This document shows positions 1 through 29,426 of a stretch of DNA of 41,921 bases, one piece after another. This DNA is from Perkinsus olseni (Eukaryota), in the NCBI GenBank assembly GCA_013115125.1, contig JABANN010000292.1:1-41921 (forward strand). Reading direction: 5' to 3'. The stretch's first letter is position 1, and every line of letters begins with the position of its first letter. The notes beneath the pieces were generated by a model. It was not told the DNA's origin, searched no databases, and worked only from the letters and a program-made list of their open reading frames with translations. A program made the position numbers and the translations under genes.

Positions 1-242
1 GGAATCGGGCAGAGACGGGAAGTTCGCCACTGAAACGGTAAGGGGTCCCCGCCCCATGTTTTGTTTAAGATATTTACAAATAAATCAATTATATTGTTCG
101 GTAGATGTTTTAAACATTGCATAGGTATATCATCACTTCCGCCGGCTTTATCAAGGGACATCGTATTCAATGCAAATCTCACTTCACTCGCCGTAAAAGG
201 ACAGTCATACTCATCTCGGTCTGACGTGTCCACATACTTCAA
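1..242 (-). mobile_element. Non-LTR (LINE-like) retrotransposon fragment, region at the start of the reverse transcriptase domain; runs off the left edge
   Basis: Minus-strand translation (absent from the ORF track) reads EYDCPFTASEVRFALNTMSLDKAGGSDDIPMQCLKHLPNNIIDLFVNILNKTWGGDPLPFQWRTSRLCPIP. This matches the PFTxxEV..KAxGxDxIP..LxxIxN..W..PxxW..IP pattern at the start of non-LTR RTs. An in-frame TAA lies just upstream (about 243-245), and the segment is more AT-rich than its neighbours. Confidence 0.85.
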
Positions 243-532: not shown

Positions 533-3500
533 TCAACAGCGACGTGTCAGAGAGAGGCTAGCCAAGAGTTCTTGGCAGTCGAGCATGCAACTTCCAGTGT
601 CGGTGAGCTCATTGCTATGCATCGGCCTAAAGGGCTGGTGTAGCCATCCAGAGGCTTCCACCTCCTTTATCAGCCAGGCTGACTGGGCAGATCTGAAGTC
701 TTCAACACTCTTCTCTTGGCCCACAGAGCGCACCTACCCATATCATGAGCTAGAGCTTGCCTCGCAATGTACCATGCCTTACCTGTCCTCTTCCCAGCCT
801 CTGCCACGGCCACTGCTGCGCCTCCCTTGCGTCCCCGGTCCGTTCTATTTCGAGGTTGAAGCGAGTCCTGAAACCGCCCTCACCACCGCCCCTACCGACA
901 GCGTGTCCTCGAATCAGCCAGAATCTCAGACAGAGAGCCTGAACGATCGCAATCGGATACAAAGGAAGCTTTCCTGGGCGAAGACCTGCAGTAGACGTAG
1001 CAGAGACATGTCATCCTCTTGCTGATCTCGAGGCATCTCCTTCAGCTCTGCTCGCCATGCAGCGAGGAACTCTTGTCTCATTACGGAGTCGTCCCCGATT
1101 GCCGGGAACATCACCACTACTGGGTCAAGCAGGGAGCCTGTATATCCCGTACCTGCCCAAGAGGACCATCAATCGAGCAACGATTCGACGCAAAGCGAGA
1201 ACGAGTCGATGCAGGGTCCCCTCAGGAATCCCAAGTTGGTATGATTATCACCCCTATAATCCGATGAGAGGGACATGTAGTTCCTTGGTAGGAGTCGACC
1301 AATGGTCGACGACCATCAACTCAGAAGTATCACTTCCACGAGCCTACTCTCAGAGAAAAGTGCAGCTCCATCAACGCCCTGCTCTTGACGGTTATGAGTG
1401 ATGAGGAAGCAATAAAGCCGATACAGCTGAGCAACCTCGGCGAAGTAGAGAGAGCAGATGTAGCCGCAGTCTGGTAGTAGGCTCAGAGCCTGTAGTTGCT
1501 CCATAGAGGGCTTGCTAGCAAACTTCACGCCCATCTTAGATTCGGTAACCGGTCCCGTGAACCTACTGATGACTGTTAGAATAGCTCCCAGGAGCATTGA
1601 CCATACAGCCTCTTGAATCCCGTAACAGCCCTATTGGTGCCTTGGACATTCTCCTTCCATTCAATGCTACCACCGTGCAGCACGATCTCCCTGCTGTACC
1701 CGGTTGCTGCATGGAGTATCTCAAAGAGAGTCAACCAACCCTCGCCCCATACTGTAACCGGTGTCTAACGCGGCCTGTCAAGCCCACCACGAGCTCCTAG
1801 TCTGCTACAGACAGGTCACCCGATGTGCTACATCGTAACGATAAGAGAAGGAGTACCTCGTTAGCGGGTATGGTAGTCCAAGCTACCGAGACATCGACCG
1901 TCGGTGTTTCAGAGACCTTCCCCTCTGTTTCTCGAAGGCAGACCAGCGCATCGACAATGAGGCACAGGCCATCTCGCTCTATCGAAGAGGGCAGGTGGAG
2001 CAGGAGCGGGAACTGCGAAAGGGATGGCTCCTGAGCAAAACAGTAGCGACCTACCGAGGCTGGGTCCTCTGGTATCCAAGAGGACGGCTGCTTTGCATCA
2101 ACCACATAATCAACCTCCCAAGATGATATGCCGGGTACAAATCTCCCCAGGTGGTTGGAGTACCTTACTCGTAGCGGTAGACAGATCTCAGTTCCAATGC
2201 CGGTCTCACCATGTGAATCGGAGTCTACGATTCTCGCAGGATACAGTTGGCTCGACTCCTTGCACGGCAGAGACGGTGAGGGAAATGGAGGACTGTTTCA
2301 ACCTCTGGAACTCAGTGCCATGCATTATCGCTTTTGCCATCTCTCTTCGAAGACGCAGAGGAGACCACCGCGACACACCAACCCTCTCATTAAGTACGTT
2401 GCCACAGAGAGCGAGCCATCCTCCCGCCTGACCTCGCACTTCATCCGGAGGAAGCTCGCTTCTGTCGAGATTCAGCTCGCTAGCCCGCGGTATCCTCGAC
2501 TTCTTCCGATCCAGCAAAATCGCTGCAGCCAGCATCGGGTCGGTTGAGAGCAAGCCGCTGACAGCATCCCTCTTGGAACTGGGCAGCGGTGCAAGGAGGG
2601 TCCTAGAGGGGAGGCAGTCCGCTGGGATGATGGGAGCAAGCCGACAGGAGGACGGCAGCTTCGAGAAGGCCGCCGCAGCTTCGAGGATCCGAAGCGGACG
2701 AGTGTACCTCAATTTATACTTCGCGAGAGCCAGGTTCAAATCCCCGTCACTTCTCTCAGGCGCCTGAGCTCGATCACAAAGCCACCTCTTGAAGCCATTC
2801 AAAAATTCCTCTATGTCCACTTCCCCGTCACCGTTCTTATCTGCGTCGTTGAACAGGAGGCCGACCTCGGACTCCGTCAGCTTGATAACAGCATCCTTTG
2901 TGAACTTACTGACGAAACGTCGGAATTCGGCCAAGTCGAGGCTGCTGGTAGCATCATCATCGAAGTCATGAAAGGCGTCTTTGAGAACTCCTACCATAGG
3001 CTCAACTTGCCCCACAGCGAGCCAGTCGAGTTCCATAAGCAGCACCGGTCCCATCAGTCGGATGAACTGGTCCTTGGTGAGCCCTGTCCGCCCGCCGTTG
3101 TCGCCAAGGTTTACCCCTACTTGCCTCAGCCAAAACGGCAGCTGCGCCGGATCCAAATTGGTGGGAGAGCCCAGAGCAATCAGACAGCTACGCAGCTCCT
3201 TCGCATCGACTCTCCCAGAGTGGTCCTTGTCGTACATGTCGAAAAGGTTCTCCAATGATACACGCAGGGACCCCTCTAGCAAGGCATGGCGGGCGTGGAG
3301 GGCAGAGGCTACCTCTCGCAAAGAGCGGTCCCCCAAGCCTTCCAGGAAGGCCTCGGCCTCAGCCGAGCTCGCCCCCGCCAGAACAGACAGTTGAGCAGGC
3401 TTGATGCCTTTTCCTAGGCTCCAGAACCGAGCAGGGTCTGCCGAGATTGCCCGACCGATTGATGCAGAGACTTGGTGCTCGAGGAAGTACTCCATCTCAA

Positions 3501-5901
3501 GGTGATGCCGCCACACCCGAAGGCTGACCCGGCCAGGACCGTGGGCTGAGTCTTCCAACGCATGACATAGTAGATGCATCTAGAAGGACGGTTGGAACGA
3601 AAGCATGCAGCACGGCGCTCACTTCGTCTTGACTGAGCCCCGCAAGCTGCATCACGCCCAAAGACCGCATAACCCAAGTGAACTGGTCCACCGAGACCCA
3701 TGGGATCGTCCCCGGGAGGGAAGCGTCCTCCGGCCTAAGAGGACCCCGGGAATCGAAGTGAGCGATCCGATACGCACTGCGGTACGCGATCGTCCGGAGA
3801 AGCCCAGAAGAACCTACGCTCGCCTTCTCTCCAGCTCAGTCATGGCCCAATCGATCGACCTAATCACACGTCTATGCGCCAGTAGCAGCTTCTTCAAACA
3901 CTCGAGGCCTCTGTCAGCGTGAGGCGACGCTTGGCCGTAGGCAGTCACAGGTACACCACCAGGCTGTTGGAATGCAGGCGTCTGCTGTCCAGAGGGGAGC
4001 TCTGATGGAGCGGCCTCAACCATGAAAGTAAGAGTTTCCGAGCGAACGCTGCCCCTGCCCGTCGGGTCGAGCAGTCTCTGAAACCTCGCTAACTCTTTTG
4101 TCGAGTAGTCGAAGCCAGCGGCTGTAATAGCTGTAGGCAGTGCCTCGATGCCGACCCTCCCTGTCGAGGCCGGGTCCAATACGGCAGGGAGCGAGCTGCG
4201 GTCCTCCTCAACCAAACACTTGTGGAGGTCGAAGAGCTGCTGGCGGGCGGTGCGAGCTTGGGCTCTGCTCAAGACCCCAACGAGGCAGAACATCTCATAG
4301 ACATCCTGCATGCTCTGTCGCCGACCGATCAGCCGTCCTACGGTGTCCGCGACAAGGCGGCGGGCATCGGTAGACGCACAGTCATCCCAGTCCAGTATCC
4401 GATCCACCTCAGGCCACTTCTGTTGCATTGCGGCCGATACCAGACCGATCGACGAGGAGCCTTGGCTCTCTACAAACTGCAGTATCGCCCCGAGATCCAC
4501 CGAGGGGAGCTGATACATGAACGCCGAGCTGCGCAGGAGAGAGGACAGAAGCCAGTCACAGAGGACCTCTGTCAAGTAGTTAAGGAGTGCTTCACCTTGC
4601 ACCGGTATCGACGATTCTTCCACCTGAGTGCCCGATGACTCGTCGGTAGGCGGAGGACGAGCTCTCTCCAACAGTACGCGCAGCATGCGAGCTGATGCCA
4701 CCTCTCTTCCCCTACACGCCGCTCTGAGGTCAGCAGCAACCTCGGCAATGCGATCGATCCGCCACAGCTTGCCGTATAGGATAGAGGGGTCCGGACTCGT
4801 GTCGAGGAGCGTCAAAGCCGCCAGCAGCACCTGTCCCGGGAGCTCTCCCGAAGCCCACCGTGCGAGGGTTCCAACAGGCGACGGATCCGAGCCAGCCGCT
4901 TCCACGAGACAAAGTCGCCAGACTGCCTCGGCATCCTCAGTCGAAGTGAGTCCGAGGGCATACGCAACCTCCTCAACACGGAACTGTGAGGAAGCCAGTG
5001 CCTGCTGGATACCGGTGTCCCGAGTCGCTGTCATCAGTGCCGGATCCATGGCCCTCACGCATTGCGCCACGCCGTAGACAGGGTCCAGCCACCGGAGCTC
5101 CGACTGGGGCAAATCGATAGCCTTCACGAAATCCCCCCGAGCAATGTTCGTGGCGTAGATACCGACAACCCCATTGAGCCACTCAGCTGCGCTTGCGTGC
5201 AGACTCTCCCCCAATCTGTTTATCTCTTCGACAGCGATGTAATTCATCTCGCCACTGCCTGCGATGCTCTGCCACGCCCGGGCCCCACTACCGAACTCCG
5301 TCAACAGCGACAACCGGAACTCCTCCGAGCTGCTCCTGGGCCTCACAGCTTCCCATAGAAACTTTACCTCGGATGCTGTTAGCACTCCCACCCCCTCAAG
5401 GGACCGACTGAAGAGAGCCTCGGCAACGTTGAGGTCACTCCCGGCCCGCGGCTCCGCGGCGGCCTTCTTCGCGGCTTCCAGGATCACTAGAGACGGGTCG
5501 CCAGAGCCGACTGACTTCGTAATCCTCTTACGGAGACTGGCGAAGGCGAGGGACGGGCACCACGGCGGGAATTGATCAAGTGAGTGAACCATGACCTGTG
5601 TCAAGCGTCGCCGCTCCGAAACCTTCCCGCCACCTCAAACCCTAGGCGACGAGCTAGGAACAATTCCGGAAGATTCGTCCATCTAAGGTTGGCCATCGGA
5701 GGCATCGAGGGGTACCCTTCAAGATTTAGCAGAATACCACACAAGTCGGCTCGGAAACAGGATACGCATTCACCTCAGTGCAGGGGACTGTGAAGGGAGC
5801 TCATTCTGCCCTTTGTACTCAACGACTAGCTCCTTTCGCTTCAGCTTGATCGGTATCATGGATATACCAGCCAAGGAAAACATCACCCGACCAGCCTCCA
5901 T
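533..5901 (-). CDS. Large multi-exon EF-hand calcium-binding protein with a C-terminal NPHP1 (nephrocystin-1)-like C2 and helical region
   Basis: Exons in ORFs 3814-5604, 3497-3691, 2206-3579, 1797-2105, 1316-1597 and 926-1117 are mostly joinable through GT-AG introns. EF loops DKDHSGRVDAKE, DDDATSSLDLAE and DKNGDGEVDIEE, plus degenerate DPASTGRVGIEA and DPTGRGSVRSET. Likely start MEAGRVMF at 5901, after a pyrimidine-AG site. The 3' end (533 versus 926) is uncertain. Confidence 0.75.
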
Positions 5902-6393
5902 GGATGGCGACTGACAAAAATTAGTCCGGCGACCGAAGCCTTAGCTTGTGAAGTTGTGAATTTTTTCAGCGGATAAACGAGTAGTTTATCTAGGTTAAAA
6001 CCGGCGCGGAGAGATGCCGTGTTATATTGTGTGCACAGCGGGACACCTAGTGTCCCGACTGTGCCTCCCACGCTAGCAAGCTAGTACTCTGACTACCGGC
6101 TTGGGTTATCAGGTGCTTGCTAACGGCTCGGAGGTCGAGCGTCGTTCCCCTGACGCTCTCTTCCTTTTTTTTTAACCGAGGTCTTCGAGAGGCAACTTGT
6201 GCCTGCCGGACCGCGATCGCCACTTGCAGCATCGCCTTCGGCCTCGGCACAGTTTGCCTTCGCGTTACCCTCGCTGCCGTCGTGAGGTCCTGTCGACCTT
6301 TCCGACGCTAGCTTGGTACCGCGCCTTGCCCCATCTCGGAGACCAGAGGTTTTACGACGACCCAAAGTCCGACGTTATCCTCTTTGAACAAAG

Positions 6394-7170
6394 ATGACGG
6401 TTCAGCGACAGGAAGACCCGTCTCTGTTCAGTACGGGAACCCCCACGCGTGGCCCTCTAAGATTCCGATAATACACCCCCTCCCGCCCTCCCCCACTACT
6501 TCCTCAAGGGCACCATCCTCTTGTTCATCAGCTACGTATGCTATCCGTCTGATACCACTCTGGACCTGCAAAAAGAACTCACCCGGTAAGCTAGAGGGCG
6601 GCAAGTACAATGAATTTGGCGCACTCGCAACACGGGAAGGCCGTGGCGTAGATCCGGCAGTCACGGACTGAGTGCTGATTCTTGTTCATGATCGCGTTGA
6701 TCGTTGCATGACAAATGTACATGTGCCTGCAAGGAATTGAACCCGACTGCCACTATCAAGCCGAAATAGAAGGACTGCATGAAGGAACCCCTAGGGAAAA
6801 ACGCAGGCGGCCTCAACTGACTTTTCCTGCGCTTCATCCTCGTGATGAGAAGCCCATGGCAGGTCCCTATCCGATATCCCTCGGGGCATGCCGTTGTATC
6901 TGAAATCGTGGCTATGCCGTCCGGGAGCGTCAGGCGCCGTATGTAGGTGTCGCCACGTATTCCGTTGCAAGGTATGAGGGTTCTCGAGCCCAGCGGAACA
7001 AAGGGTATGTACGGTGGTTGCGGGGATAGCGCCGTCCGACTCCCCATCCTACCCCAGGGCAACTATCCGATTCTGATCATTCACAATGACCACTCCTCCT
7101 CTACTCTCCCGGTCCTTACTCCGCATAGCTGTCAGAAAGGCCACAGACATGAAGTAACTAACAATTGAAA
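6394..7170 (+). other. Possible small multi-exon hypothetical gene (unresolved)
   Basis: A polypyrimidine-AG site near 6180, an ATG at 6394 and several GTAAG/GTATG donor-like sites. I could not assemble a consistent reading frame or recognise a domain. Confidence 0.2.
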
Positions 7171-7506
7171 CGCCCGAACAGCGGACTACCATTACGAGTT
7201 GAACTGTTCGCGCCACAACCCAATCCCGACCATATTACTCATCCCATTTTAGGTAGTCGGAGCGAGGGGCGCTGCCTTGAGGGTCACTGGACATTGAAGC
7301 CGGCCCGTCAACAGAATTGTAAAAAACTGCTCCGAGGCAACGTGAGCTCGCTACCCCATCACATCCTCTCCAGAGTGACAACAAGACACGTTAAGCATAG
7401 ACTGGTGAATATCGGGAAGGGCGGTAGTGGTAATATAACAGTAGGATCCACAATCAGCTATCGGAGGTGTTTCAATGATCACAAGATGCTGCCTTCAGTA
7501 GGCGGC

Positions 7507-9209: not shown

Positions 9210-11609
9210 TTACTGTAGCGGACTGTTGCCGTTAGTAACTGAAAAAAGCATACCACTTCTTCCAATGGCCGAGTCGCCCTAGCAACTTACCGCTGGAGTA
9301 CATGTCGCTGGTACCATTGGTACCCGTCATAGAATCCGCTCCGGAAGAGCCTGAAATATTACTACGGGATGTACGCATGGTGCGGTATGAGGATGGAGAG
9401 GTCCTTACCGGCAGCCTGAGGCGTGTAGAGCTGCGGCGCGGGATTCTGTTGATGCTGTTGATGATGATGGTGATAGGCAGGAGCCGGAGCAACTGTTCGC
9501 TGCTGCTGCTGCTGCTGCTGTAGTAAATGATAACCATGCGCTGGCGACATCACACCACCAGGCGGGCCGTATCTACTAACGAAAGATCAGTGAACTAGTT
9601 TCCAACTGGACCTCCATACCCGTTATTCTGTTGTTGCTGCTGCTGTGCACCCGGTCTGTCGTTGGCGTATCCGTTGCTAGGCGTCGCTCCGCTACCATTT
9701 CCTGGATTCAGCCCATTGCTCGAGCCACCAAATCTACTCAATACAGCCCATCACAAGATGCCCTTCCGATCCCGTTAGTACCCCGTAGCAGCAGATTGAT
9801 GGTGATGGGGATGACCGGCAGCAGCGGCAGGGTTCTGATGCATACCATAGCCGCTGCCATAGTGAGCAGGCTGCGGGCTGGCGGCCATGTAGTGCTGCGG
9901 TGGAGGTGGCGCCATGCCCCAACCTCCTGTACCTGATGAATCGATATCCACAGTAAACCCAGTCGGTTGGTGCTGCTACTCACCTCCTCGCCCACCTCCT
10001 CCCATGTTGTTGTACCTCGCCACTCCCCCCTGCATGAACTTGCTCGGACCGGTACCCTCACGAGTGGAAGGCTTCACCTCGACCTGCACGAAGGAGACAG
10101 AACTCTCCTAAGAACGTGTCGAATCAGAGACAGTCGCACCCATTTGCCGTCGATAGTGTTGCCTTGACCGTCCACACCACCCTGAATGGCAGCCTGGGCC
10201 TCCGCAGGCGTCTGGAAGGTGACATAACCGAAGCCACGGGAGCGGCCACTGGTGCGATCAACTCTGAGGAGAAACCATCAAACGCTGCACAATGAGAAGC
10301 GGCTAGTACTACTTGACGATACAGTCGGTGATGACTCCGTACCTCACGAAGTGCTGTCGGAGCCTCTCTGAAGGGAGCAAACAATCTACAGTAAAATCCT
10401 CCAGGCATCGCGTACCTCGATCGACCGTAGCAGGTAGTCCTCCACAGAATACCTTACACGGGTTGTCCTGTGGCAGCAGTCCGTTGTTGCTGTTTCCGGT
10501 GGCCCCAGTCGGACCGAAGTTATTGATATGAGTTTGGCCACCACCACCAGCCATCATGTGGTGCATCACACCCATAACCGAATTGACACCGCCCGGGGGC
10601 GCACCAGCGGGGTTGACCGGCTGACGCAGGGCAGCCTGCGCTCTGATCTCCTCCTGGGAGACGGCTCGCTTAACGTCGACCGTCTTGTCTAATAATACGT
10701 GGGAGTTCGGGTATGACAGGCACGACTGAGGGAGACAACGATGCTGACTACGGCTAGTGATAGACGACCGCCCTCTTACTTCTAAGTCTTTGACATTAAC
10801 AAAAGTGATAAAACCAAAACCTCGACTGCGACCAGTGAGCTTGTCCATCATCACAACAGCCTCTTCCAGCTGGCCAAACTGGCTGAAGTAGTTCCAGAGA
10901 GTCTGCCGGTCCACCAGGCTCGGCAAACCGCCGATAAAAAGCTACGACAAAGACGAGCATGGGAGGCGAAAATTGGCGTACTGCTTACTTTCCGCTCAGT
11001 GACATTAGGATTGAGCGCATTGCTGGTGTTGTTCATGACGGGGCGACCGCCATTGTCGCCAGGGGCGTAGTCTCTTATTCCCACCATAAAATTCTGCATG
11101 CCAGCTTGCTGGGCCAAGACCCCCAAATCTTGTTGTTGTAGATGCTTACCGTTGCCTCCACCACCAACTAGAACAACAGACAGCTGGCTCAACGCGCAGT
11201 CACGCCGCTAACTTACGAGATGCCGCGACAGCTGCTGCCTGATGCATGGCCATGGCAGCCTGCTGTCGCTGATGGTGCTGCTGTGGCTGCTGTTGCAACA
11301 TAGTGTTAGACGGGGGATGACCAGCGCCCATCGTCGTAGCGAACTCGGGTATGCTCGTTATACTCGGAGCTGCTGCAGGGCCCATCATGCTGTTGCCACT
11401 GGCCGCTAAAGGTGTCGCCCTGGAGCTAGTCGAGGACATCTCGGGGGTGTTGGCGGCGGTACTCGAGCCCGTAGTAGAGTAGTAGCCCTGAGGGCCCTTC
11501 TGCAAGCGAGACGCCGCTAGTTCAGGAGTAGGGGGGTTATAACTGCCAGAGGGTCGCCATGGATGGCGAAGAGAGAAGCGGGGACTTACTCGTTCCTAGG
11601 GGTAGCCAT
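9210..11609 (-). CDS. Two-RRM RNA-binding protein (hnRNP A/D, Musashi, DAZAP1-like), paralog 1, with Q/H/P-rich low-complexity tails
   Basis: RRM1: LFIGGLP...DKLTGRSRGFGFITF. RRM2: KVFCGGLP...DRTSGRSRGFGYVTF. Spliced from MATPRND (11609) to ...VTNGNSPLQ* (9210). Confidence 0.88.
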
Positions 11610-12757: not shown

Positions 12758-14309
12758 CTAATAGGGACTGGCCCTGTATTGGGATGGCTGGCCGTATCCT
12801 TGAGGTTGCATGTTGCCATACCCTTGCTGTTGAGGATAACCCCCGTAGGCAGCAGGCTGCTGCTGCGGCGGCGGTGGGGCACCTCCATAACCACCACCAC
12901 CTTGCTGTTGGCGAGCCCCACCATAAGGGGAAGCACCATAACCACCGTACTGGGCGGGTGACTGCTGCTGCATCATCATAGGCTGCTGTTGCTGCTGATA
13001 GCCACTACCGTTGTACATGGGCCTGGCACAGAAAGAGACCTCAAAGCACGATGATAAGCTCGCCGCTCCCTAGCGTACTGCTGTGGCTGGCGATAGCCTC
13101 CAGACTGATACGAGGGAGATCGCTGACCGTAGCCACCTCCACTTCCACCACCAAACGACCTACGACACCGACAGTGAGAAAGTCGGCTACGAGAAGAAGC
13201 TCACTACCCCATAGGACGGCCCTTGCCCTTACCACGAGATCCCTCACGCCGAGCATGCTTGACCTCAACCTGATCCAGCATAACGATTGGTGATACTACA
13301 ACCGTCACTGCGCCACGAAATTACATGCTTGTCATCAATCATATTTGCATCACCACCAGCAATAGCAGCATCAGCATCAGCAGGTGATGAGAAAATAACG
13401 TAGCCGAAACCTCGGTGGCGTCCCGTCTCGCGGTCGTACATTACCAGAGCCTCGGCCACGGTTCCATACCGAGAGAAGTGCTCGGTTAGTCGAGCTGAAT
13501 GGAGATGTACTTCGACGAAAGGCCACAAACTTTCCCAGGCGCTCACGTTTATCACAGCTGTTAGGCAGGCCACCGACGAAGATCTTGCAAGGGTTGTCAC
13601 CACCATCACTAGGCACTCCATCTCCTCTACCAAATCTATCAGTAGAAGAATGCCACCGCGGTCGGTAGAGGGCAACTTACCCAAAGTCCCCACTTCCCTT
13701 GCCTCCACCATAGCCTCCCTTGCCACCATAGCCGCCCTTACCCCCACTGAAACCCTTACCGCCTGAGAGACCTCGCATTGTCTTGCACGAACACCAGCCA
13801 ACAACACACTACCTCCTTTCCCACTGTGGGGAGGGTCCTGCGAAGCCCTCTTGACATCCACGGTCTTCTCCAAAAGAACATGCGGACCACTCGCCAGACA
13901 AGTCTAAGAGGGAAACCGTAGGCAACGCCAGCAGGAGGCGAAGTGCTCGTACCTCCATGTCAGTGAGCTGACCATAAACCACGAAGCCGAAGCCTCGAGA
14001 CCGACCGGTGTTCCGGTCGTACATGACCACCGCATGCTCCACCGGGCCGAACTGCGCGAAGTAGCTCTCCATATGCTGCTTCTCACAGGCACCCGGCAGA
14101 CCTCCGATGAATAACTACGAAAAATACAACTGTTTTAGCAGAGCGAAGCAGCAAGACAAAGCACTCACCTTCCGGTCGTCCGACTCTCTAGACCTGGCGG
14201 GGCCTCCACCACTACCCATAAAATTGGAAGCCTGTGGAGGCGGGGCGGTAGGGGGTGCCTGGTCCGCGTAAGGGTAGGCGGAGCCCACAGGAGCGCCAGT
14301 CGTATTCAT
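12758..14309 (-). CDS. Two-RRM RNA-binding protein, paralog 2, with a Gly/Tyr/Gln-rich tail and C-terminal PY-NLS-like end
   Basis: RRM1: LFIGGLP...DRNTGRSRGFGFVVY. RRM2: KIFVGGLP...DRETGRHRGFGYVIF. GGYGG repeats; ends ...QYRASPY*. Confidence 0.9.
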
Positions 14310-18421: not shown

Positions 18422-18713
18422 CACCAATCGATATTAGATACCATCAAGTTGAAGGTGCTGTAAGCATCGCTCCGCTCAAAAAAATGCACGAAAATTGCAT
18501 GAAAGGCCCGTACTAATTTTTCGATGAGCGCGTCTCCTTCGGAATCGACTTGGTCAAGGTAGGGGAAAAACGGTCCCGTCGCTTGGAAGGCTCTTCACAG
18601 ATCCGCCAGCAAATTTTGAGAGGGCGCAGGGTAGTAATGGTAACCGATGCTGGTGATGCAGTTGTTGTCTCTTTTCGTGACTACTTAACTTTTCGAAGAT
18701 TGCACAATCATCG

Positions 18714-21070
18714 ATGTCAGCAACGACGACACCGGCTGCAGCGGCAACGTCGTCGTCAGGAGAGGATGCTACTACCCCGCCAGCCCTACCTAGGATAGCA
18801 GAGATCTCCGAGGCCTCAGCGTTGGCTGCTCAGTTCGTTATACAACATCAGCAGCAGCGGCAGGAGGCCGCTAAGAAAGCAGCTGCTCAGTCCACTACTA
18901 TCGATACAACAGCAGCAGCAGAAGCGAGCCCTACTGAGACCAACGGGACATCCACGACCACTGCTGCTATCGGGAGTGAAGCCAAGGACAACAGCCCGGT
19001 CGGAGCGGCTTCCCCCGCGGCCGAGGTACCTTCCTCGGCCACTGTCAACCCAGCTGAGTTGGTCGATAGCGAGCTCTCGTCCTTCGTCGAACGGGTGGCA
19101 TTGACGGATGAGGACCATCATGTCCATAACCACATACTGGGATCGATACTGTCCGTTGCTCGGAGCAACCTGGATATCGAGGCCACGATAGAGACCTTCG
19201 GTTCCGCCGCCAGCGGTCTATCGGAAAAAAGCAGTGACATTGATGCAACGATAATATGCCGGTTTTCGGCGTTAAAGAAACGCTTCGGCGCTGCGGGAGA
19301 CGAGAAGAGCTTATGTTCAGCCGCCGTTATGGGTTTGGGTAAAGCAATCAGCAAATTTGAGAAGGAGGCGCCGGGTGTCGGCCTGAGGGTGGTGCAGGTG
19401 ACGAGGGCGTAGTGATCTCAACATTCCGGTCACCACCGCCGCTGACAGGTTATCCCATCTGCGAAGGTCCCGATCGTGGTGCTGTCCTGGATCGGGCCCA
19501 ATGGTAACGTACAAATCGTGGATGTCAGTATCAATAATCAACTTCCTCTGCACAACACCGCGGTGAGCCTAAGATACCATCCCCTGGCCAGCGAGGATAT
19601 CTTTCTGGTAGTTACTGCGGAACTATGTGGAGATGGACAAGCGAGTCCAGATACTGGCACTTTGCGTGAAGGTAAGCTGCCATCAGTCATTCCGACGGTG
19701 AGTAGTCTGATCTCCTGCCCTTCAGCGATGGGCAAAACTGTGCGGAATTAGTGACGCTAAGCAGGGTAACCTCAGTAGCTACAGCTGGACCTTGCTCTGC
19801 ATATATTTTCTACAAGTACTACTACTACTTCCATCGAGGCACTAGCCCAAGCTTCGTGTAGGTGCGTTCAAAGGGCGCCATTCTGCCGTCTTTACAGTCA
19901 ATGGCGGCGAAGAGACGAAAGGGCGAGCAAGTGAAGCATTACTCATGCCCAATCAGTGGCCGCGTTTTTAATGTCGACTTTGTAGACAGGTTCGGTAAGT
20001 CATACAGTGCCGTAGCCTCATACCGTAACTTTCCCAACTTTCCTCAGAGGCTACTACGGGAGAGGATGCTTTCAAACCAGCGGACACCCCACCGTCAGAG
20101 CTTCTGCGCGATTTTTTCGTGTTCTATGATAGAGACTATAAGTGGGGCTCTGAGGTAGTAAGGGCGACGGGAGCAGCGGCGATGGTGATACTCATGGGCT
20201 CATCACCATTATCAGGTGGTGTCCATTCGAACAGGGGAGAGGCGCAGCACAGACGAATATCTTCACTTGCCAAGGCGGGACACTGAGAGCAACATTCTTA
20301 TTGAGGATCCACTAGACCTCAACAGGAACCTCAACTGTGTGCTGGACTACGAAGGCCGTATAAGGCTTCGCCGAGCATTTGCTCTCTTCGCTGCAAAGGT
20401 GGCTGATGCTTCTATGGAGGAGTTGTTGACCCAGGCTAAGACTTTGACGAGGATGCGAACAGGGCCGACAGCAGCAGCAATGGCGGCCAAGCATGCTCAG
20501 AACGCTACTATGGGCGTTGGAGGCCCCCACGCTCCTGGCCTTACTGCGCCCACGCTGCAGCAGCATACGGCCATGTCGCAGGCATCGCACCAACAACAGC
20601 AGGCTTCACAGCAGCAGGGTCGTCCACGGAATATGGAATATATGCGGCAAGACACTAGCCCAGAATACCAGCCGCGGGGACCGGTCCCGGGCTCCATGCG
20701 ACCAGGGCAAGTTGGCGGAGGACCGGGTGGTGGGTATAATATGATGGGGGTTGGGCATAGTGATATCAGGGCGCCGTCGAACTTGGTGTTGAGCCCTGTG
20801 AAAGACGGACCGGGCGCCGCCACGGTGGTTGAGGGAATTAGAGGCGTGCGAGTACAGCAGCAGCAACCGGTTAACAGTGGTGGTGTAGCATATAATGGGG
20901 CGGGGATGAAGAAGGCTGCTGCTCCCTACTACCAATATGGCCAGCAACAACAGCAGAAGGAGACAGCCGCCGCCGCCACTGCTGTCCAGAGTTATGTGAT
21001 GCCACCCCTTGGTTACTATCTAGAGCTGCAAACTGACGGTCATAGTTGGGATATCGTGGACCGGTGGTGA
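18714..21070 (+). CDS. Cid1/TUTase/GLD-2 family terminal nucleotidyltransferase (non-canonical poly(A)/poly(U) polymerase)
   Basis: Catalytic FGS..SGL....SDID motif and third Asp in VDVSINN. Also HNTALLRNY, VKRWAKLCGI, GNLSSYSWTLLCIYFLQ, and a PAP-associated region FFVFY..W...VVSIRTG...IEDPLDLNRN. Q-rich C-terminus. Confidence 0.93.
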
Positions 21071-21980: not shown

Positions 21981-24900
21981 ATGGTGAGTGACGCTACTGC
22001 CAGCAGCAGCGACCTCTAGCTGAACAGTCGAGTCCTTAGGCTCTACGGTCGACCAACTTCAAACGAAGCCGGGCGAAAACCAACATCTGCGACATCTGCT
22101 GGGGAGATGAGGACGAGTGTTTATGCCACAAGTCAGCTGCAGAACGACAGGCTCATGTCGAGAGCTTCCACGCCCCAACAACAGTGAGCGACAGGACCTC
22201 GAAAAAGACGAGAGGTGGCGTGTCCAGCAAGGGTTCGGCCGGAGTCGATGTTGCTGAGGAACCCGACGACGTTGGTGCCATCCGCTGCATCACCCATGAC
22301 CGGGATTCTGCCAATGTGACCTGGAGTAACTTCATAAGGACCTCCAAGTACACCCCCCTCACTTTCCTGCCACTCAACCTGTGGTACCAATTTCATCTTT
22401 TCGCCAACATCTACTTCCTGGTAGCAGCGGCCCTGCAGTGCATACCGTCAATAAGTGACTCTGGTGGGCAACCCCTGCTGCTGTTGCCCCTCATCTTCGT
22501 CTTGGCTGTGGCGGCGATGCGCGACCTCGCCGAGGACATACAACGACACAAGAGTGACAATCGAGAGAATGGCCGGAAGGTCACCCGCGTGCTGCCGCGG
22601 CCTGACGAGCACGGCAGCTGCACCGAGGAGGTCACTTGGGCCGACCTCGGGCTTGGTGACATTGTTAAAGTCAAACGCGGCGAGGGCTTCCCCGCTGACC
22701 TGGTCATGCTGAGCTCTGAGGACGAGTCCGGTATGGCGTATGTGGAGACTATGAACCTTGACGGTGAGACCAACCTCAAACCCAAGATGTGTAATGTTGA
22801 CATCATGAACGACATCAACGACGAAAAGGATGCTTCCAGCTTCATAGCGGCTCTCACCTATGAGAGGCCTAATACTAACCTCTACAAGTTCGACGGCGAG
22901 ATGACGACCAAGGGCAGGGCATACCCCCTCACGGTCGACCAATTCCTTCTTAGAGGTTCGACCCTCCAGACGACAGCGTATATATACGGCATAGTAGTGT
23001 ACTGTGGTGACCAGACCAGGATCTTCAGGAACTCAGCTGATACGGGTGAGGAGGGGTCGCAGGGCTTTTGCTTTTCCCTATGCTGCCACTACTCAGCGTG
23101 CTCGGTTGCAGGCACTGGCCGTGACAAGCTAACCAAGCTCATGGCAACCTACAACCATCACGTCATCACCCTCTTCGTCTTACAGGCTCTCATCTGCATA
23201 GTATCCGCAGTAGTTAACGCTGTCTATACTACCACCAGTGACGACTGGTACTACCAATCCCCCTCCCTCTGGCGAGCCCTTCCCAATAGCCCCTCCCTAG
23301 GTACCTTGACGTCAACGCTAGTGACAGCGTTGATGGTGGGGAGGTGTTCCTTGATGCCTTGAAGGTTGTTGGCACTTTACTACTCCAGTTCACCTACTTC
23401 GTCCCCATATCCCTACTGGTAGGCCCAGTGCTAGCGCTCGCAGTTTTCTTTCATTGATGAGGGCTAAGCGCTGCGCAACATGTCCTCACTGAGTCATTAT
23501 GGTTAATAGCCTCGCGCTCCTAGAAGTGCCGAGTCCGGAAATACCCGGCTCGTCTCACTGAAGAAGTTGACGACGCTCGAGGGGGAGGCTCTGTCGGTCC
23601 TCAGGTGACGCTGGAGATAGTAAAGTTCTTCCAAGCCAAGTTCATCAATGAAGACAAGAACATGGTCTCCGGAGGCAAGCCTTTGTACTCTAGACGACGC
23701 ACCTCCATTGATTTCGCTCAGGTCTGGGGGCGACGGCCAACAGCTCGACACTTGGTGAAGAGCTGGGCTCGGTGACGCACATCTTCAGCGACAAAACCGG
23801 CACTCTGACGCAGAACCTTATGCTCTTCACCAGTATGAGCATTAACGACTGCACCTAGGCATCTGTACTGACTTAGGTGCGTGTGCTATTGGCACCGGAG
23901 GCTCGGAATCGCCACTGCTGGTGCGTAAGTCACAGCAGCAGGGAGAGGCGACGGACCAGTCGCGATCACGTGAGCCTGTCGTCCTCCTCGGTCGCTGTGA
24001 ATTCATCTCTGTTAGTGCGGTCGGACGCCACGGTGCGTGACCACCATGTGGGCTCGGACTTCGACATAGAACTCTTCAAGAAGATCGCCAGGTCCAGCTC
24101 CGGTGTGGTGCGGCAGAGGTAGTAGTAGGAGGGCACAGTACATCAGGAATCCATCATTACCTTCTCTGCATTAACCAGGTTCGTAGACTTCCTCATCTGC
24201 CTCGCCGTATGCCACTCGGTCCTTATCAAAGCTGATGATGAGGACGACGAAGAAGCGGCCGAAGGGAGCTCTCCATCACAGACCGGTCGTGTCCACTCCG
24301 ATAAGCTGTAGGCCGGGTCACATCGCCGATAACCCTATGAGAGCTGCAAAGGTACGATGCCTCCTCCCCGGACGAGCTTGCCCTGGTAGCCGGCGCGCGC
24401 GAGCTCGGCATGGAGTTTGCCGAACGTCCAACCGTCAACAGCGTCCGGGTCAATCTGAGGACAGACTTTGCCAAAGAGGTAGCAGCCCCTGGCTTTCCCT
24501 ATGCTCGGGAGTAGCCTCACCTCAGTTGATGGGGCTCGACGTCAACTACTTGGACTTCGAGCTCCTCGATGTCATTGAGTTCGACAACGATCGGAAGCGG
24601 ATGAGCGTGCTTGTGAAGGAGAAGCTGCCGGCCACCACGTACCATCACCTACCGCTACTCCCTTCTCATTGTACACCCTCCTTCAGTACCGCCTCTCCGG
24701 ACCGTCGCCATGTCCAGGACCGAGTGGCAGCGAAGCCACTGGGGCAGAAAGTCCGAGAGGTTGGTGTGTAGCAGTTGTTCTCGCGTGACCAGTCCGTTCC
24801 CAGAGTTGCCCGCACCCACGGACGCTACTTCTAATCAAGGGCGCCGACTCTTCCATGCTCGACGTAGCCGTACCGCTCTCAGACCACGAAGGTGCCCTCC

Positions 24901-27752
24901 GCCGCGGGGTGGCCATCCTTGACGTACCCGATTCAGCAGATACTGAGCTCTCCGAGACGCTGGCGACTCTGGCGGCAAACGGCTTGCGGACGTTGGTCTA
25001 CGGCGCGAGGGATCTCACAGATGACTTGGACTTCGTTAAAGAGTCGGCCCCGACTGTGGTGTGCTCGATCAGGGAAGCTTCATCCTTCGTAGATGGCGAG
25101 AAGCTTACTCGGCAGCCCGGGGTAAAATTGGGGATGAGAAGAAGAATGCCATGCATGAGTGCATGACGAGAATGGAGTCTCGAGTGGACCTGCTGGGTAG
25201 TACTGGCATAGAGGACAAACTGCAGGTGAGGCCCTTCAACAGGGGTTGATGAACGCGCTATCGCCTTCGTTAGGACCAAGTGCCCGAGGTCATCAAGGAG
25301 CTCCACTCAGCCGGCATTAAGCTGTGGGTGCTGACCGGTGACAAAATTGAGACCGCCATCAACATCGGGTACGCCGGTCTGGCAGGGGGAGGGGTCCTCG
25401 GTGGGAGTGGGTTAGTTCAGATACAGTAGTAATCTATTAACCACCGAGGTCTACAACCAGATCATCGACTCTACCTGTACTCGGGAAATCAGCGCGGCCC
25501 TCGCCGCCCTTAGTAACCTCATCGAGTCCAAGTTGACCACCCGGGCAGCTACTCTAGACTGGGACAACGATGCTGAGGAGAAGCTCGAGAAGGAGGGGTA
25601 CATAGCTCATTCCGAAGTGGACCCCGATGAGGTTGCCTTGGACGACGATCTCGGCGGCCCGGACGCTGAGCTTCCTCGTGCTAATGATGGGCCGGAGATG
25701 GCAAGCTTCCGCCAAGTGGCCATCACGGTATCCGGGGACGCCTTGGCCGTCATATTGAGACACAAGTAAGCCGTATCGTTAGCAACAGTGCAAGCCCATA
25801 GTCATCTCGTCAGGGTCCTGCGGCTCAAGTTCTTCCGTCTCTCGCTGGCGCACTGCGTGACGGTGATAGCCTGCCGAGTGTCACCCAAGCAGAAGGCTGA
25901 TGTTGTGAAGTAAGTCCTTTCAAGGTGTAAAGTCTATGCGGTATCACAACGCGAGAGGGAAGGGTAGAGTATCGGACGTATCTCTGAGAAACCGCGAACC
26001 AACCGTGGGCCGATGGGGGAAGGAGGAGAAAGAACATTGGGACTAGCATGAATCGATCAAGCTAAAATGGTGTGAAAGCAGACACAAAGTTATGGGAATT
26101 CGGGACTGATTCTGGGACTTGGATACTGCAGCCATGCGGATGATGCCCTCAGGTGGAGCGGTAGCTACCTCCCGGCCAACACTATGCTGTCGATTGGTGA
26201 TGGCGCCAATGATGTTGGTATGATTGTCGTAGCAGACGTTGGAGTAAGTCAGCGGGAATCTTTGTAGTGAGTAGCATGATATCTTTATCAGGTCGGCCTG
26301 AATGGCAAGGAGGGTGCGCAAGCGGCCCGCTCAGCCGACTACGCCATACCCGAGTTCCGCTTCCTCCGCCGTCTTCTCTTTCTTCACGGTCGCGAGGCGG
26401 TACGGAAGAACTCTATCTTCGTCTACTACACGGTGTACAAGAACGTCGCCTTCTCTCTGCCCACCTTCCTGCTCGGCTTCTACTCCCACTTCTCGGGCAC
26501 CAACCTCTACGACCCCATCCTCAAGCAGGTCTACAACGTCCTCTACACGGTCTTCCCTATACTATTTCACGGAGTCTTCGACCGGGACATGCCCGTCTCT
26601 GTCCTGGCTCGATGTGCCTTCCTCTATAAGTTCGGTCACCGTACCTTCGGCAACTTCGTCCTCGCCCGCTGGATTTTCGGTGCCATCTGGACCGCCCTCT
26701 GGTGCCTCATCCCTCCCCTGTGGGTGCTCTACCCTGAGTCCTACCACTGGGACGGCAACACAAGCCCGTCGGACCACCAGATTGGACTTCTGGTCTTCTT
26801 CGGTATGGTCCTAGTCTGCAACATAACAATGTATAAGTTCACTAACGTGTGGTTCTGGTTCATCCATGCTGGTATATGGGTTGGCATCTTGCTCTTCCTC
26901 ATCTGCTGGGCGGCAGGCACCGTAAGTCCCGACCACCCACTCCTAGTGCAACCAGTTTCGTCCTCGCATTCCTCGTTAACAGCTCTACTGATTCAGTCGG
27001 GCGTCGCCGCAAAACTGTGATCGCTGTGGAGCCTCGCTGTTTTCCTCAGATTTTCGGAGATCATTTCGAGGACTCCTTCGTCAACACCCTGCTCACCCCG
27101 CCAGCCATCGGCTCTCTCATTCTCAGTTGTGGTGAGTCACTGCTGGGCCTAGCATGACCCCTCCACGATGCTTCGTGCCCAGGCATGAGCCTGATGCCGC
27201 TGGTACTGCAACACCAGTACTACGGCCTCTTCTACCCGTCCAACTCTCGGGTGGTCAAGGAGCGCTTGCAGCTTGGGGTAGGTTCCATCCCTAGCGACAG
27301 CCCTCGATGATTTGTGGCGTTTGTAGGCGCGAAAGTTGGTGGTGGTGAAGAGAGACGAGGAGAAGCCAGGGCCGAAACTAGGCCAACCCGCTGCTCCTAT
27401 GGTCCGCGAGGAGGCGAGTCGCAGTGGTCTGCTTGGCAAAAGCCGAACGAGGAGGTCGCTTATGTACACCTCAATACAGGGGGCGCCGACACCCAAGGCC
27501 GTGCAATCGATAGGAGGAGGCTTTGGCTTCACCGAGAACAGCAGTGTTGATAGGATCGGGAGGTAGGGCACGTCCTGATGGGGCTCGTACAGGTCGTGTT
27601 GTTCGATCAGGTATTCCGTGGTGGGCAGCGGCAGCACTCGGCCTTTGGCTTCACAGCGGACTAACCGAGCGTCCAAGCGTAACAGTCACCTCGCGACGGT
27701 CCAGTTCGGCGGTACTCAGAATATCAGCATCAATAAACCCCAGGATTGCTAG
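21981..27752 (+). CDS. P4-type ATPase (phospholipid flippase)
   Basis: Motifs [110 protein letters not shown] and IGDGANDV, plus a C-terminal transmembrane bundle. Many short introns. Confidence 0.96.
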
Positions 27753-27874
27753 GGCTACTCACGGCCGCAGCGCTTCTGCGCAAACTTCTCTGTGTATCAC
27801 ATGCTCCCACCGACGCTGTTCTCACGATGTTGAAAAATGTCAAGGCGTTCTGAGTTCAGTGACGGGAGTTGGTA

Positions 27875-29426
27875 ATGGCCAACGGCAGTGCTTCGCTTCT
27901 GATGCCCGATAATGAGGAGCCATCGAGCTACAGTTTGCCCCGAAGGTGGGCTCATCGGATACTGGCGATGCTCCCACCGGGTGTGAAGTGGGAACGCCTC
28001 TCACCGAAGACTCGGCGGTTCATCCTGATGGCCGTAGCACTTGGAGCCGTGGCGGTCGTTGCGAGGGCGCGAAGGAAGCGGGTGGGGGCCTTGGCCGCCG
28101 AACTCAGGCCCGAGCACATCAGCTTGTCTGCTTTCCTGAGGGCGTGCGAGGGCGGTTTGGTACCCTCCGTGAAGGTGTCCCCAGGAGGCCTCATCGAAGC
28201 CATAGGGTCCAATGGTGTCGTCCAGCTTACTCGTTTGGTGCCGGGCTCACAGAACTACGTTTTCAACACAATCGCCGAGTACTGCAAAGACTACAGTTAC
28301 TTCACGCCTTCTCCCACAGGGAAGTCTGTCTTCTTGCGAGCGCTGCAGCAGGTAGGCATTCCGCTGGCCTTGGTGTACCTTTGGTATCGGCTACTTATGA
28401 AAATCCTGCACAAGGACGAGTCTCACGACTTCGGTGGGGATCGCCGCTCCCGAATACCCAAGACAACCTTCAATGACGTTGTCAGTCCTGTAGCTTCGAC
28501 TGAGCTGAAGGAAGTGGTCGAGTACTTGAACAACCCCCGGGCCTTCTCCCGCCACGGCGCCCGTCCGATCAGAGGCGTCCTCCTTTACGGCCCGAGCGGC
28601 ACGGGGAAGACACTGCTCGCCAGGGCAGTGGCGGGAACGGCTAGGGCGGCCTTCCTTTCAACTAGCGGGAGTGAATTCATAGACACCTACGTTGGCCGGG
28701 GAAGTGCGCGAGTCCGTGCCCTCTTCAACCAAGCCAGAGCCTTGGCTCCTTGTGTGGTGTTCATCGACGAGGTAGATGCCTTGGGTTCCCGAGGCGCCGG
28801 CGAGTCTCGGTTTGGAGGAGGCCACGAGGAGTACGTGCAGGTGGGCGACTAAATTACGTCAGTCCCACCAGCACATGTTTCTCGTCAGACGTTGAACCAG
28901 CTGCTGGTGGAGCTGGACGGGGTCTGTGGTCACGAGGGAATAGTAGTGCTAGCAGCAAGCAACCGGCATGCAGCGATCGACAGAGCTCTCCTGAGGCCCG
29001 GTCGCTTCGACAGGTACCCACACGGTAAACAGGCTGCTCATAACGGTATCACATGCAGGCACGTCTTCCTAAATCTGCCGACGACGGCAGAGCGATTGGA
29101 GATAATTCGCATACATTCACGTCAAGTGCGGTTCGGGCCGAACGTGGACCTCCGAGTGCTTGCACAGGCCACCGAGGGCTTCACGGGAGCCGACCTCGCC
29201 AACTTGGTCAACGAGTCCATATACCTGTCACTGAGGTAGGTCACACCAGTATGATTCGATTCCGGTAGTGTTCGTGGCTCCTAATGTCAGGACTGGCGGC
29301 AACGGCCTCGTTCGAGAATGCGACCTGCGGTCGGCCTTGATGAAGTGCAGGCGGCTTGTCCAAGACCGAGAGGAGCGCCCCTCGGGTAACCCGACGCCCG
29401 ATTCTCCGGTCGCATCGATCGATTGA
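27875..29426 (+). CDS. FtsH-like membrane AAA+ ATPase lacking the M41 zinc-protease domain
   Basis: Two transmembrane segments flank an FtsH extracellular-like segment (ISLSAFLRACEGGLVPSVKV). Walker A GPSGTGKT, pore loop GSEFIDTYVG, Walker B VFIDEVD, TLNQLLVELDG, second region of homology ALLRPGRFDR, and GFTGADLANLVNE. Stops about 45 aa later with no HExxH. Confidence 0.9.

Follow-up and report, generated by a model that had tools for sequence, protein, structure and literature searches.

A trans-spliced Perkinsus olseni gene joins a calmodulin-like EF-hand module to a candidate nephrocystin-1-type C-terminal region

Introduction

The closest described counterparts of the gene treated here belong to the nephrocystin-1 (NPHP1) family, whose animal members have, in the portions of the literature drawn on here, a documented role at the ciliary transition zone (PMC2265406; PMC3495828). 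According to the sections on NPHP1 in the survey of Zhang and Aravind (2012, PMC3495828), the protein is built of an SH3 domain, a C2 domain of the NPHP1-C2 type and an alpha-helical domain; in some eukaryotic clades N-terminal EF-hands stand in the place of SH3, and a response to Ca2+ is suggested for these forms. Here we describe a minus-strand gene of Perkinsus olseni, located between positions 5592 and 533 of a 41,921-nucleotide stretch of contig JABANN010000292.1 (assembly GCA_013115125.1; the whole stretch is called the window below), which joins a calmodulin-like EF-hand module to a C-terminal region that rather probably represents an NPHP1-type C2 domain followed by a helical domain. 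P. olseni is a parasite of shellfish.

EF-hands have also been described on other proteins of the same ciliary module. In the part of PMC3495828 that deals with NPHP4, this protein carries two C2 domains followed by immunoglobulin (Ig) domains or, in some eukaryotes, by C-terminal EF-hands. In Paramecium, as reported in the passages of PMC7093003 on deciliation, RPGRIP1L carries extra C-terminal EF-hands, and the depletion of NPHP4, RPGRIP1L or CEP290 blocks deciliation induced by Ca2+/ethanol. In the same passages an EF-hand-deleted RPGRIP1L still rescued deciliation; therefore, the presence of EF-hands on a transition-zone protein does not imply that they sense the Ca2+ that triggers shedding.

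As regards the genus Perkinsus, the alignment supplement of PMC3495828 includes Perkinsus marinus six times, namely under C2CD3N-C2, CCDC135-TGL, CEP76-CC2D2A-TGL (twice), NPHP4N-C2 and RPGRIP1N-C2. The rows in the NPHP4N-C2 and RPGRIP1N-C2 alignments indicate that partner proteins probably exist in the genus. The NPHP1-C2 alignment of that supplement has rows from vertebrates, Phytophthora, Ectocarpus, Ichthyophthirius, Paramecium and Tetrahymena, with Naegleria noted, and has no Perkinsus row. A search of the literature on Perkinsus in connection with the transition zone or NPHP proteins found no paper naming the gene. An earlier note on this DNA, made from the sequence alone, had proposed the fusion of EF-hands to an NPHP1-like region and had taken it as new; in this respect it was anticipated by the EF-hand form of NPHP1 in the text of Zhang and Aravind (PMC3495828).

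Results

The EF-hand module and the C-terminal region belong to one gene

The gene model, assembled by script from window coordinates, consists of ten exons and encodes 1,457 amino acids. Its coding sequence of 4,374 nucleotides contains no internal stop, and all nine introns, which measure 83, 43, 46, 42, 137, 44, 195, 47 and 49 nucleotides in gene order, have GT..AG ends. The features of the model are the following.

5592-5590, minus strand: start codon ATG
3818..5592, minus strand: exon 1 (5592-3818), N-terminal region of no known family except for a degenerate EF-hand pair
3623..3734, minus strand: exon 2 (3734-3623), with RNA joints on both flanks (introns 3735-3817 and 3580-3622; contig record 3)
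2210..3579, minus strand: exon 3 (3579-2210), calmodulin-like four-EF-hand module (loops at about 3231-2806), linker and first C2-like strands (from about 2286)
1607..2163, minus strand: exons 4-6 (2163-2055, 2012-1857 and 1719-1607), remainder of the beta-rich, C2-like domain; contains blocks DVSVAWTTIP and VLHGGSIEW
533..1562, minus strand: exons 7-10 (1562-1348, 1152-986, 938-783 and 733-533), C-terminal region, probably alpha-helical
535-533, minus strand: stop codon TGA

One exon (3579-2210) and one open reading frame (ORF 2206..3579) contain both the EF-hands and the initial C2-like strands, the latter from about 2286 on. The shared exon and the shared open frame make the EF-hand and C-terminal parts one gene and not two. 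In addition, a complementary DNA (cDNA) contig of 1,263 nucleotides from run X1 (contig record 2) contains positions 2208-3363, with all of the EF-hand loops, spliced in frame to positions 2055-2161. Thus, the single gene that the earlier note had supposed is confirmed, and the alternative of two separate genes is excluded. The six peptide blocks on which the note had relied are found on the minus strand and in the order in which it gave them, in ORFs 1797..2297, 1576..1764, 1316..1630, 926..1168 and 533..733 as well as in the ten-exon model. Its estimate of an EF-hand-bearing N-terminus of about 1000 amino acids proved real, as 1,060 residues precede the beta-rich module.

Comparison with other protein sequences supports the extent of the model. 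Specifically, the model protein aligns over its full length with P0002 (P. olseni 'calcium binding protein 4', 1,459 amino acids) at 89.7% identity, and with P0001 at 98.6% identity across 1,346 aligned residues; tblastn of P0001 against the window recovers two exons at 100% identity. A search of the 102-amino-acid exon translation against longer proteins (179 candidates) led to four P. olseni proteins at 79-86% identity. With P0005, from Perkinsus chesapeaki, the model shares 47.4% identity over residues 967-1435, and the conservation of the amino acid sequence reaches residue 1435. At its 3' end P0001 stops in frame 926..1168, with the 47-nucleotide intron retained, and P0002, P0004 and P0005 use the spliced frame. 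The C-terminal region is beta-rich and then, probably, helix-rich, and it is conserved within Perkinsus.

Similarity of the C-terminal region to NPHP1

When P0002 residues 1041-1459 were used as query in the feature search of the ESM Atlas, which relies on a protein language model, nephrocystin clusters ranked on top. The first match was a chordate 'SH3 domain-containing protein (Fragment)' with a score of 0.95 (203 of 256 features), followed by 'putative Nephrocystin 4' at 0.93 (185 of 256) and 'nephrocystin-1-like' at 0.92 (188 of 256). A cluster named 'Nephrocystin-4' was also found at 0.90; clusters named after NPHP4 stand at ranks 2 and 5.

The beta-rich part was also compared by eye with the NPHP1-C2 rows that PMC3495828 prints as a supplementary alignment. 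It is colinear with that alignment strand by strand, the ciliate rows giving the best fit, and about seven of the nine conserved blocks that were compared have a match in Perkinsus. The blocks are listed here with their counterparts.

First strand: ends G-V-x-P; ciliates have G-I-P-I-P
Second strand: R-R-L-R-F-T-W-Y; the alignment has R/K-x-hydrophobic-x-hydrophobic-x-aromatic
Further block: W-x-P/F
Further block: L-C-L-L-V-D-A-L-V; the alignment has an I-x-I/F-E-L strand
Further block: D-V-S-V-A-W-T-T-I-P; the alignment has an E-I/L-S-V/C-small-aromatic ... I-P strand
Eighth strand: V-L-H-G-G; the alignment has L-x-G-G, and the following proline is absent here
Closing strand: V-K-F

The human C2 motifs ELSCGW and YELFLNGGTP, which the earlier note had quoted, do occur in the human sequences of this NPHP1-C2 alignment (PMC3495828). 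The order of a variable N-terminus, a C2-like domain and a probably helical domain is that of the published NPHP1 architecture. By comparison, the P. marinus row of the NPHP4N-C2 alignment is unlike the P. olseni protein, which argues that the latter is not an NPHP4 orthologue.

In conclusion, these sequence comparisons suggest, with rather more confidence than doubt on our side, that the locus represents the nephrocystin-1 family in Perkinsus, in the 'EF-hand instead of SH3' form, with a C-terminus made of an NPHP1-type C2 domain and a helical domain.

The EF-hand module and the N-terminal region

The translation of exon 3 was recognised by three Pfam families of EF-hands: EF-hand_7 with 66.7 bits (cut-off 30; E-value 2.4e-18), EF-hand_1 with 56.0 bits (cut-off 25.4; 1.4e-15) on three stretches, and EF-hand_6 with 55.7 bits (cut-off 25; 1.6e-15). 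A search against the sequences of the PDB returned 276 distinct sequences at E<=0.01, among which residues 108-265 of the exon match the whole of CaBP1 (2.9e-13), caltractin/centrin (4e-10) and calmodulins.

By reading of the sequence, three canonical loops start at model residues 746, 836 and 876, with the ligands D/D/S..E, D/D/T..E and D/N/D..E, respectively, at loop positions 1, 3, 5 and 12. Degenerate EF-hands are also three in number: one is the second loop of the module, paired with the first hand, and the other two form a pair further upstream. This pair, at residues 485-534 of the exon 1 frame, lacks ligands and matches only EF-hand_9, with 17.9 bits in the window frame and, in P0002, 37.7 bits (cut-off 37). 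Therefore, of the three good and two degenerate EF-hands counted in the earlier note, the good ones stand and the degenerate ones become three. With its paired helix-loop-helix units and 12-residue loops, the four-hand module is an EF-hand module by the usual sequence criteria, and it is predicted to bind Ca2+.

Outside this module, the N-terminal region gave few matches. Exon 1 produced only weak centrin matches among the PDB sequences (E 0.33), and neither Pfam nor the PDB offered a match to the first 460 residues or so. When the frames of the window and proteins P0001-P0004 were scanned with Pfam, neither an SH3 nor a coiled-coil family emerged.

Splicing and trans-splicing of the transcript

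Transcript evidence was obtained from cDNA contigs of run X1, which had been typed as RNA by guess; its contigs are nevertheless spliced. The contigs contain eight joints, all with CT..AC ends on the plus strand, which correspond to GT..AG introns of a minus-strand gene. The joints account for seven of the nine introns of the model and for one alternative donor. The features mapped with the contigs are these.

3735-3817, 3580-3622, 2164-2209, 2013-2054, 1720-1856, 1153-1347 and 734-782, minus strand: introns with RNA joints in X1 contigs
1153..1251, minus strand: alternative 99-nucleotide intron, with a second donor at 1251-1250 and the acceptor in common with the 195-nucleotide intron
5593..5597, minus strand: spliced-leader acceptor and 5' end of the mature messenger RNA (mRNA), from contig record 6 and its match to PmaSL1

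As regards the alternative donor, the joint 1150->1250 (cut +2) adjoins the joint 1149->1345 (cut +3) in the X1 contigs, and read-through from exon 7 at this donor meets a stop within 11 codons (frame 1316..1630). Retention of the 47-nucleotide intron 939-985 would lead to a stop about 20 codons on, as in P0001 (frame 926..1168). The form spliced across 939-985 is taken as the functional one, since amino acid conservation with P. chesapeaki extends, in the frame downstream of this junction, as far as residue 1435; the contigs cannot tell which isoform is dominant. As a side observation from the contigs only, the retained intron 939-985 or the donor at 1251 would truncate the protein, inside the helical tail or just past the C2 domain, respectively.

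At the 5' end of the gene, contig record 6 (4868-5597) continues past 5597 with nine non-genomic letters. Read on the minus strand with the genomic AG (5597-5596) added, these letters are identical to the last 11 nucleotides of the Perkinsus spliced leader PmaSL1, as its sequence is printed in PMC3101222. The spliced-leader remnant at 5597 indicates that only three to five bases of the mature mRNA's genomic part precede the start codon at 5592. In conclusion, the gene is trans-spliced to the spliced leader a few bases 5' of its ATG. It follows that P0001, in which the protein is fused with an upstream deoxycytidine monophosphate (dCMP) deaminase, is wrong at its 5' end.

Alternative explanations of the C-terminal region

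Several results weigh against the assignment to NPHP1. When P0002 residues 1001-1459 were run with phmmer against a set of 1.84 billion representatives, no relative other than Perkinsus-type proteins emerged, the 35 matches being the query itself, three Perkinsus-type relatives (P0005, P0006 and P0007) and 31 others that are treated below. Profile searches with a five-row Perkinsus alignment at E<=10 retained one of 8,000 candidates of similar length, from Perkinsus, and four of 7,999 candidates among longer proteins, all from Perkinsus. Pfam gave no family at E<=10 on the C-terminal 459 amino acids and no family on the C-terminal pieces, the members of the alignment or exon 8; PDB sequence searches returned only chance matches to antibody Fab fragments with the Perkinsus C-terminal alignment, and nothing relevant with exon 8. 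The AlphaFold2 model computed on the five-row alignment had a mean predicted local distance difference test (pLDDT) value of 29.8, which is unusable for fold comparison; at this low confidence it places strands in exons 4-6 and helices in the tail of about 230 amino acids (pLDDT 25-55). In the Atlas, the helical tail alone (residues 1228-1459) gave no usable match, so that the Atlas signal derives from the beta-rich part or from the combination, and the top matches mix NPHP1-like and NPHP4 names. The Atlas comprises 7.7 million clusters, and among shuffled proteins a score of 0.95 occurs about once in 100 and a first match of at least 0.9 in 4 to 10 per 100, a calibration that was not measured on parts of proteins such as those queried here. 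The alignment of the strands was done by eye with the hypothesis already known, and it is not a statistic. The gene model, for its part, has two transcript observations against it: the 44-nucleotide intron 1563-1606 has no listed joint in the X1 contigs and is predicted only, and contig record 1 (814-1152) is colinear and unspliced through the 47-nucleotide intron 939-985, where no joint is listed. Finally, the literature is divided: NPHP1 is traced to early eukaryotes in the evolutionary part of PMC3495828, at odds with statements in PMC4092220, which limits it to opisthokonts, and in PMC5850483, which calls it metazoan-specific.

A rival explanation is that the protein is a Perkinsus-specific calcium-binding protein whose beta and helical C-terminal region is not homologous to NPHP1, the resemblance being a false positive of the language model joined to pattern-matching by eye. 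This explanation, which we hold to be rather unlikely, draws on the exhaustive and profile searches that reach only Perkinsus relatives, on the lack of Pfam, PDB or structural support, and on the blank Atlas search with the tail alone, together with the warning of the Atlas about shuffled scores of at least 0.9 and uncalibrated protein parts. It does not easily account for a first Atlas match at 0.95 (about 1 in 100), with several top matches agreeing on one small group among 7.7 million clusters, nor for a colinearity in which most of the published strands recur, correctly ordered and spaced, nor for a domain order and an EF-hand variant that match the published architecture. The same Atlas ranking may be read differently, as NPHP4-named clusters occupy ranks 2 and 5, ciliary C2 families are mutually related, and EF-hands are present on NPHP4 in some eukaryotes (in the account of NPHP4 in PMC3495828) and on Paramecium RPGRIP1L (in that of PMC7093003). 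The beta-rich domain could then be a ciliary C2 of another family (NPHP4-type, RPGRIP1-type or another of about 12 kinds), and the protein a transition-zone or basal-body component that is not an NPHP1 orthologue. We consider this distinctly unlikely: EF-hands placed N-terminal to a single C2 and followed by a helical tail are in the order of NPHP1 and not of NPHP4, P. marinus has distinct NPHP4N-C2 and RPGRIP1N-C2 proteins in the supplementary alignments of PMC3495828, and the motifs match the NPHP1-C2 rows best, the NPHP4C-C2 rows that were viewed looking different.

A further explanation concerns the helical tail only, and holds that model residues of about 1279-1345 (mostly exon 8 with the end of exon 7; window 986-1150) form a four-helix domain like acyl carrier protein (ACP), related to the tandem ACPs of polyunsaturated fatty acid (PUFA) and polyketide synthases. 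It stems from the phmmer search, in which all 31 non-Perkinsus matches were polyketide/PUFA-synthase proteins with tandem PP-binding repeats, aligned to query residues of about 277-345; the Pfam scan covered 33 of the 35 matches, leaving out the self-match and the 75-amino-acid P0007. With 121 ACP segments cut from these matches, hhalign against the five-row Perkinsus alignment gave a probability of 94.1% over 71 columns, and a hidden Markov model (HMM) of the segments scored 27.9-31.7 bits on P. olseni and 10.9 on P. chesapeaki, where 3,000 shuffles reached at most 8.4; both results are biased, since the segments had been chosen by their match to the query itself. In the 40 rows listed of the 121 segments, the score of a single repeat lies between 1.4 and 17.0 bits and its independent E-value is at least 150; the listed phmmer E-values arise from summing near-identical tandem repeats. 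In tests free of the selection bias, Pfam PP-binding and other carrier families have no match at E<=10, and no carrier protein of the PDB matches exon 8 or the profile. In P. chesapeaki another residue replaces the serine of the G-x-D-S attachment motif. As an observation on the P. olseni sequence, the ACP-resembling stretch includes a G-x-D-S-like motif. An ACP-like domain is therefore very improbable in our view, and the resemblance is probably spurious, an artefact of selection and of tandem repeats, which does not fully explain it.

As for the NPHP1 reading itself, a calcium-binding N-terminus, a beta-rich module and a probably helical one are found in this order in one transcript, and the assignment to NPHP1 is plausible but not proven, with the Atlas search and the by-eye alignment in its favour and the phmmer, profile, Pfam and PDB searches null. 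The profile or structural match to NPHP1 that the earlier note had asked for did not emerge. One more label concerns the public proteins: family PF23564 is in the precomputed domain lists of P0001-P0004, whereas the local Pfam scan did not return it, even at E<=10. This label could bear on the C-terminal module.

Neighbouring genes

A dCMP/cytidine deaminase gene lies upstream, on the minus strand at about 5776-7294 of the window, where tblastn places residues 1-186 of P0001. The Pfam family dCMP_cyt_deam_1 is found in both P0001 and P0004, and in both public models the deaminase and the EF-hand gene are fused; the position of the spliced-leader site speaks for two separate mRNAs. A loose contig end at 5910 carries on into sequence located near 6501, and looks like an intron of the deaminase gene itself. 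At the edge of the window, an open frame of 80 amino acids (3-242, minus strand) resembles, by eye, the start of a reverse-transcriptase-type protein and has no Pfam family at E<=0.001. A Pfam scan of the neighbouring genes in the window for flagellar context found none that is flagellar; the frames with families are given below.

22040-27020, plus strand: PhoLip_ATPase_N/PhoLip_ATPase_C (P4 flippase)
27863-28852, plus strand: AAA ATPase
10309-10941, minus strand: RRM_1
13265-13903, minus strand: RRM_1
18681-19412, plus strand: MTPAP-like nucleotidyltransferase palm

Discussion

The locus is best read as one gene for a cytosolic protein of about 1,457 amino acids that consists, in order, of about 700 residues of no known family, a calmodulin/centrin-like module, a linker of about 170 residues, a highly diverged beta-sandwich, probably of the NPHP1-C2 type, and a probably helical tail of about 230 residues. 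If it is indeed a member of the NPHP1 family, then by what is established for the family in animals, nematodes and ciliates it would be located at the flagellar transition zone of the zoospore together with NPHP4 and RPGRIP1L. The C2 domain may face the membrane, and Ca2+ on the EF-hand module may alter binding or conformation, for example during gating or Ca2+-triggered shedding of the flagellum. The role of 'calcium-sensing flagellar gate component' proposed in the earlier note is thus one that we infer by analogy.

A more far-reaching version can be formulated, in which the protein is a true NPHP1 orthologue that has a calmodulin-like module in the position of SH3 and acts as a built-in Ca2+ switch in the transition zone of a myzozoan parasite, NPHP1 having been present in the common ancestor of alveolates and opisthokonts. 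In this case, a rise of Ca2+ in the zoospore would change the engagement of the C2 domain and tail with the membrane or with NPHP4/RPGRIP1L, so that the gate opens, or flagellar shedding is licensed as the zoospore settles on host tissue. In this full form we regard the proposal as unlikely.

The NPHP1 assignment, if true, would have several consequences. A Perkinsus NPHP1 would be a new member of the family and would complete the NPHP1-4-8 module in the genus; it would bring a myzozoan lineage into the case for an NPHP1 older than the opisthokonts, a point on which the literature disagrees. It would also be a further alveolate case of EF-hands on an NPHP-module protein, beside Paramecium RPGRIP1L, and would make a Ca2+ input into the flagellar base testable in a parasite with a motile zoospore. 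As regards annotation, the public gene models at the locus need correction, given that one of them includes the dCMP deaminase from upstream and terminates within an intron that it retains, and the name now in use, 'calcium binding protein 4', gives no hint of the C-terminal module.

Compared with known EF-hand proteins, the module is close to calmodulin, centrin and CaBP1, whose whole length aligns with residues 108-265 of exon 3, and has three canonical loops. Unlike these proteins, it is set inside a protein of 1,457 amino acids, has a long insert between its lobes and has a degenerate second loop. With the animal NPHP1 proteins (human, mouse and NPHP-1 of C. elegans) the P. olseni protein would share a C2 domain followed by a helical C-terminal region. 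It differs from them upstream, where animals have a coiled coil and SH3 and Pfam found neither of them here; this part does not define the family, since it varies and EF-hands replace it in some clades, as the NPHP1 sections of PMC3495828 report.

The comparison with Paramecium RPGRIP1L yields one common trait, as both are alveolate proteins of the NPHP module that would have gained EF-hands, and two differences, as RPGRIP1L is of another protein family and has its EF-hands at the C-terminus. Closest of all are the protist EF-hand forms of NPHP1. From these, as they appear in PMC3495828, the P. olseni protein differs in being too diverged for any sequence or profile search to reach NPHP1, in its N-terminus of 1,060 amino acids, with about 700 residues of unknown nature before the EF-hand module, and, relative to the NPHP1-C2 alignment, in lacking the proline of G-G-x-P in the eighth strand. 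In common with them, as far as the architectures given in that source extend, it would have a variable N-terminus, EF-hands in the place of SH3, a single divergent C2 domain without Ca2+-binding residues and a helical tail.

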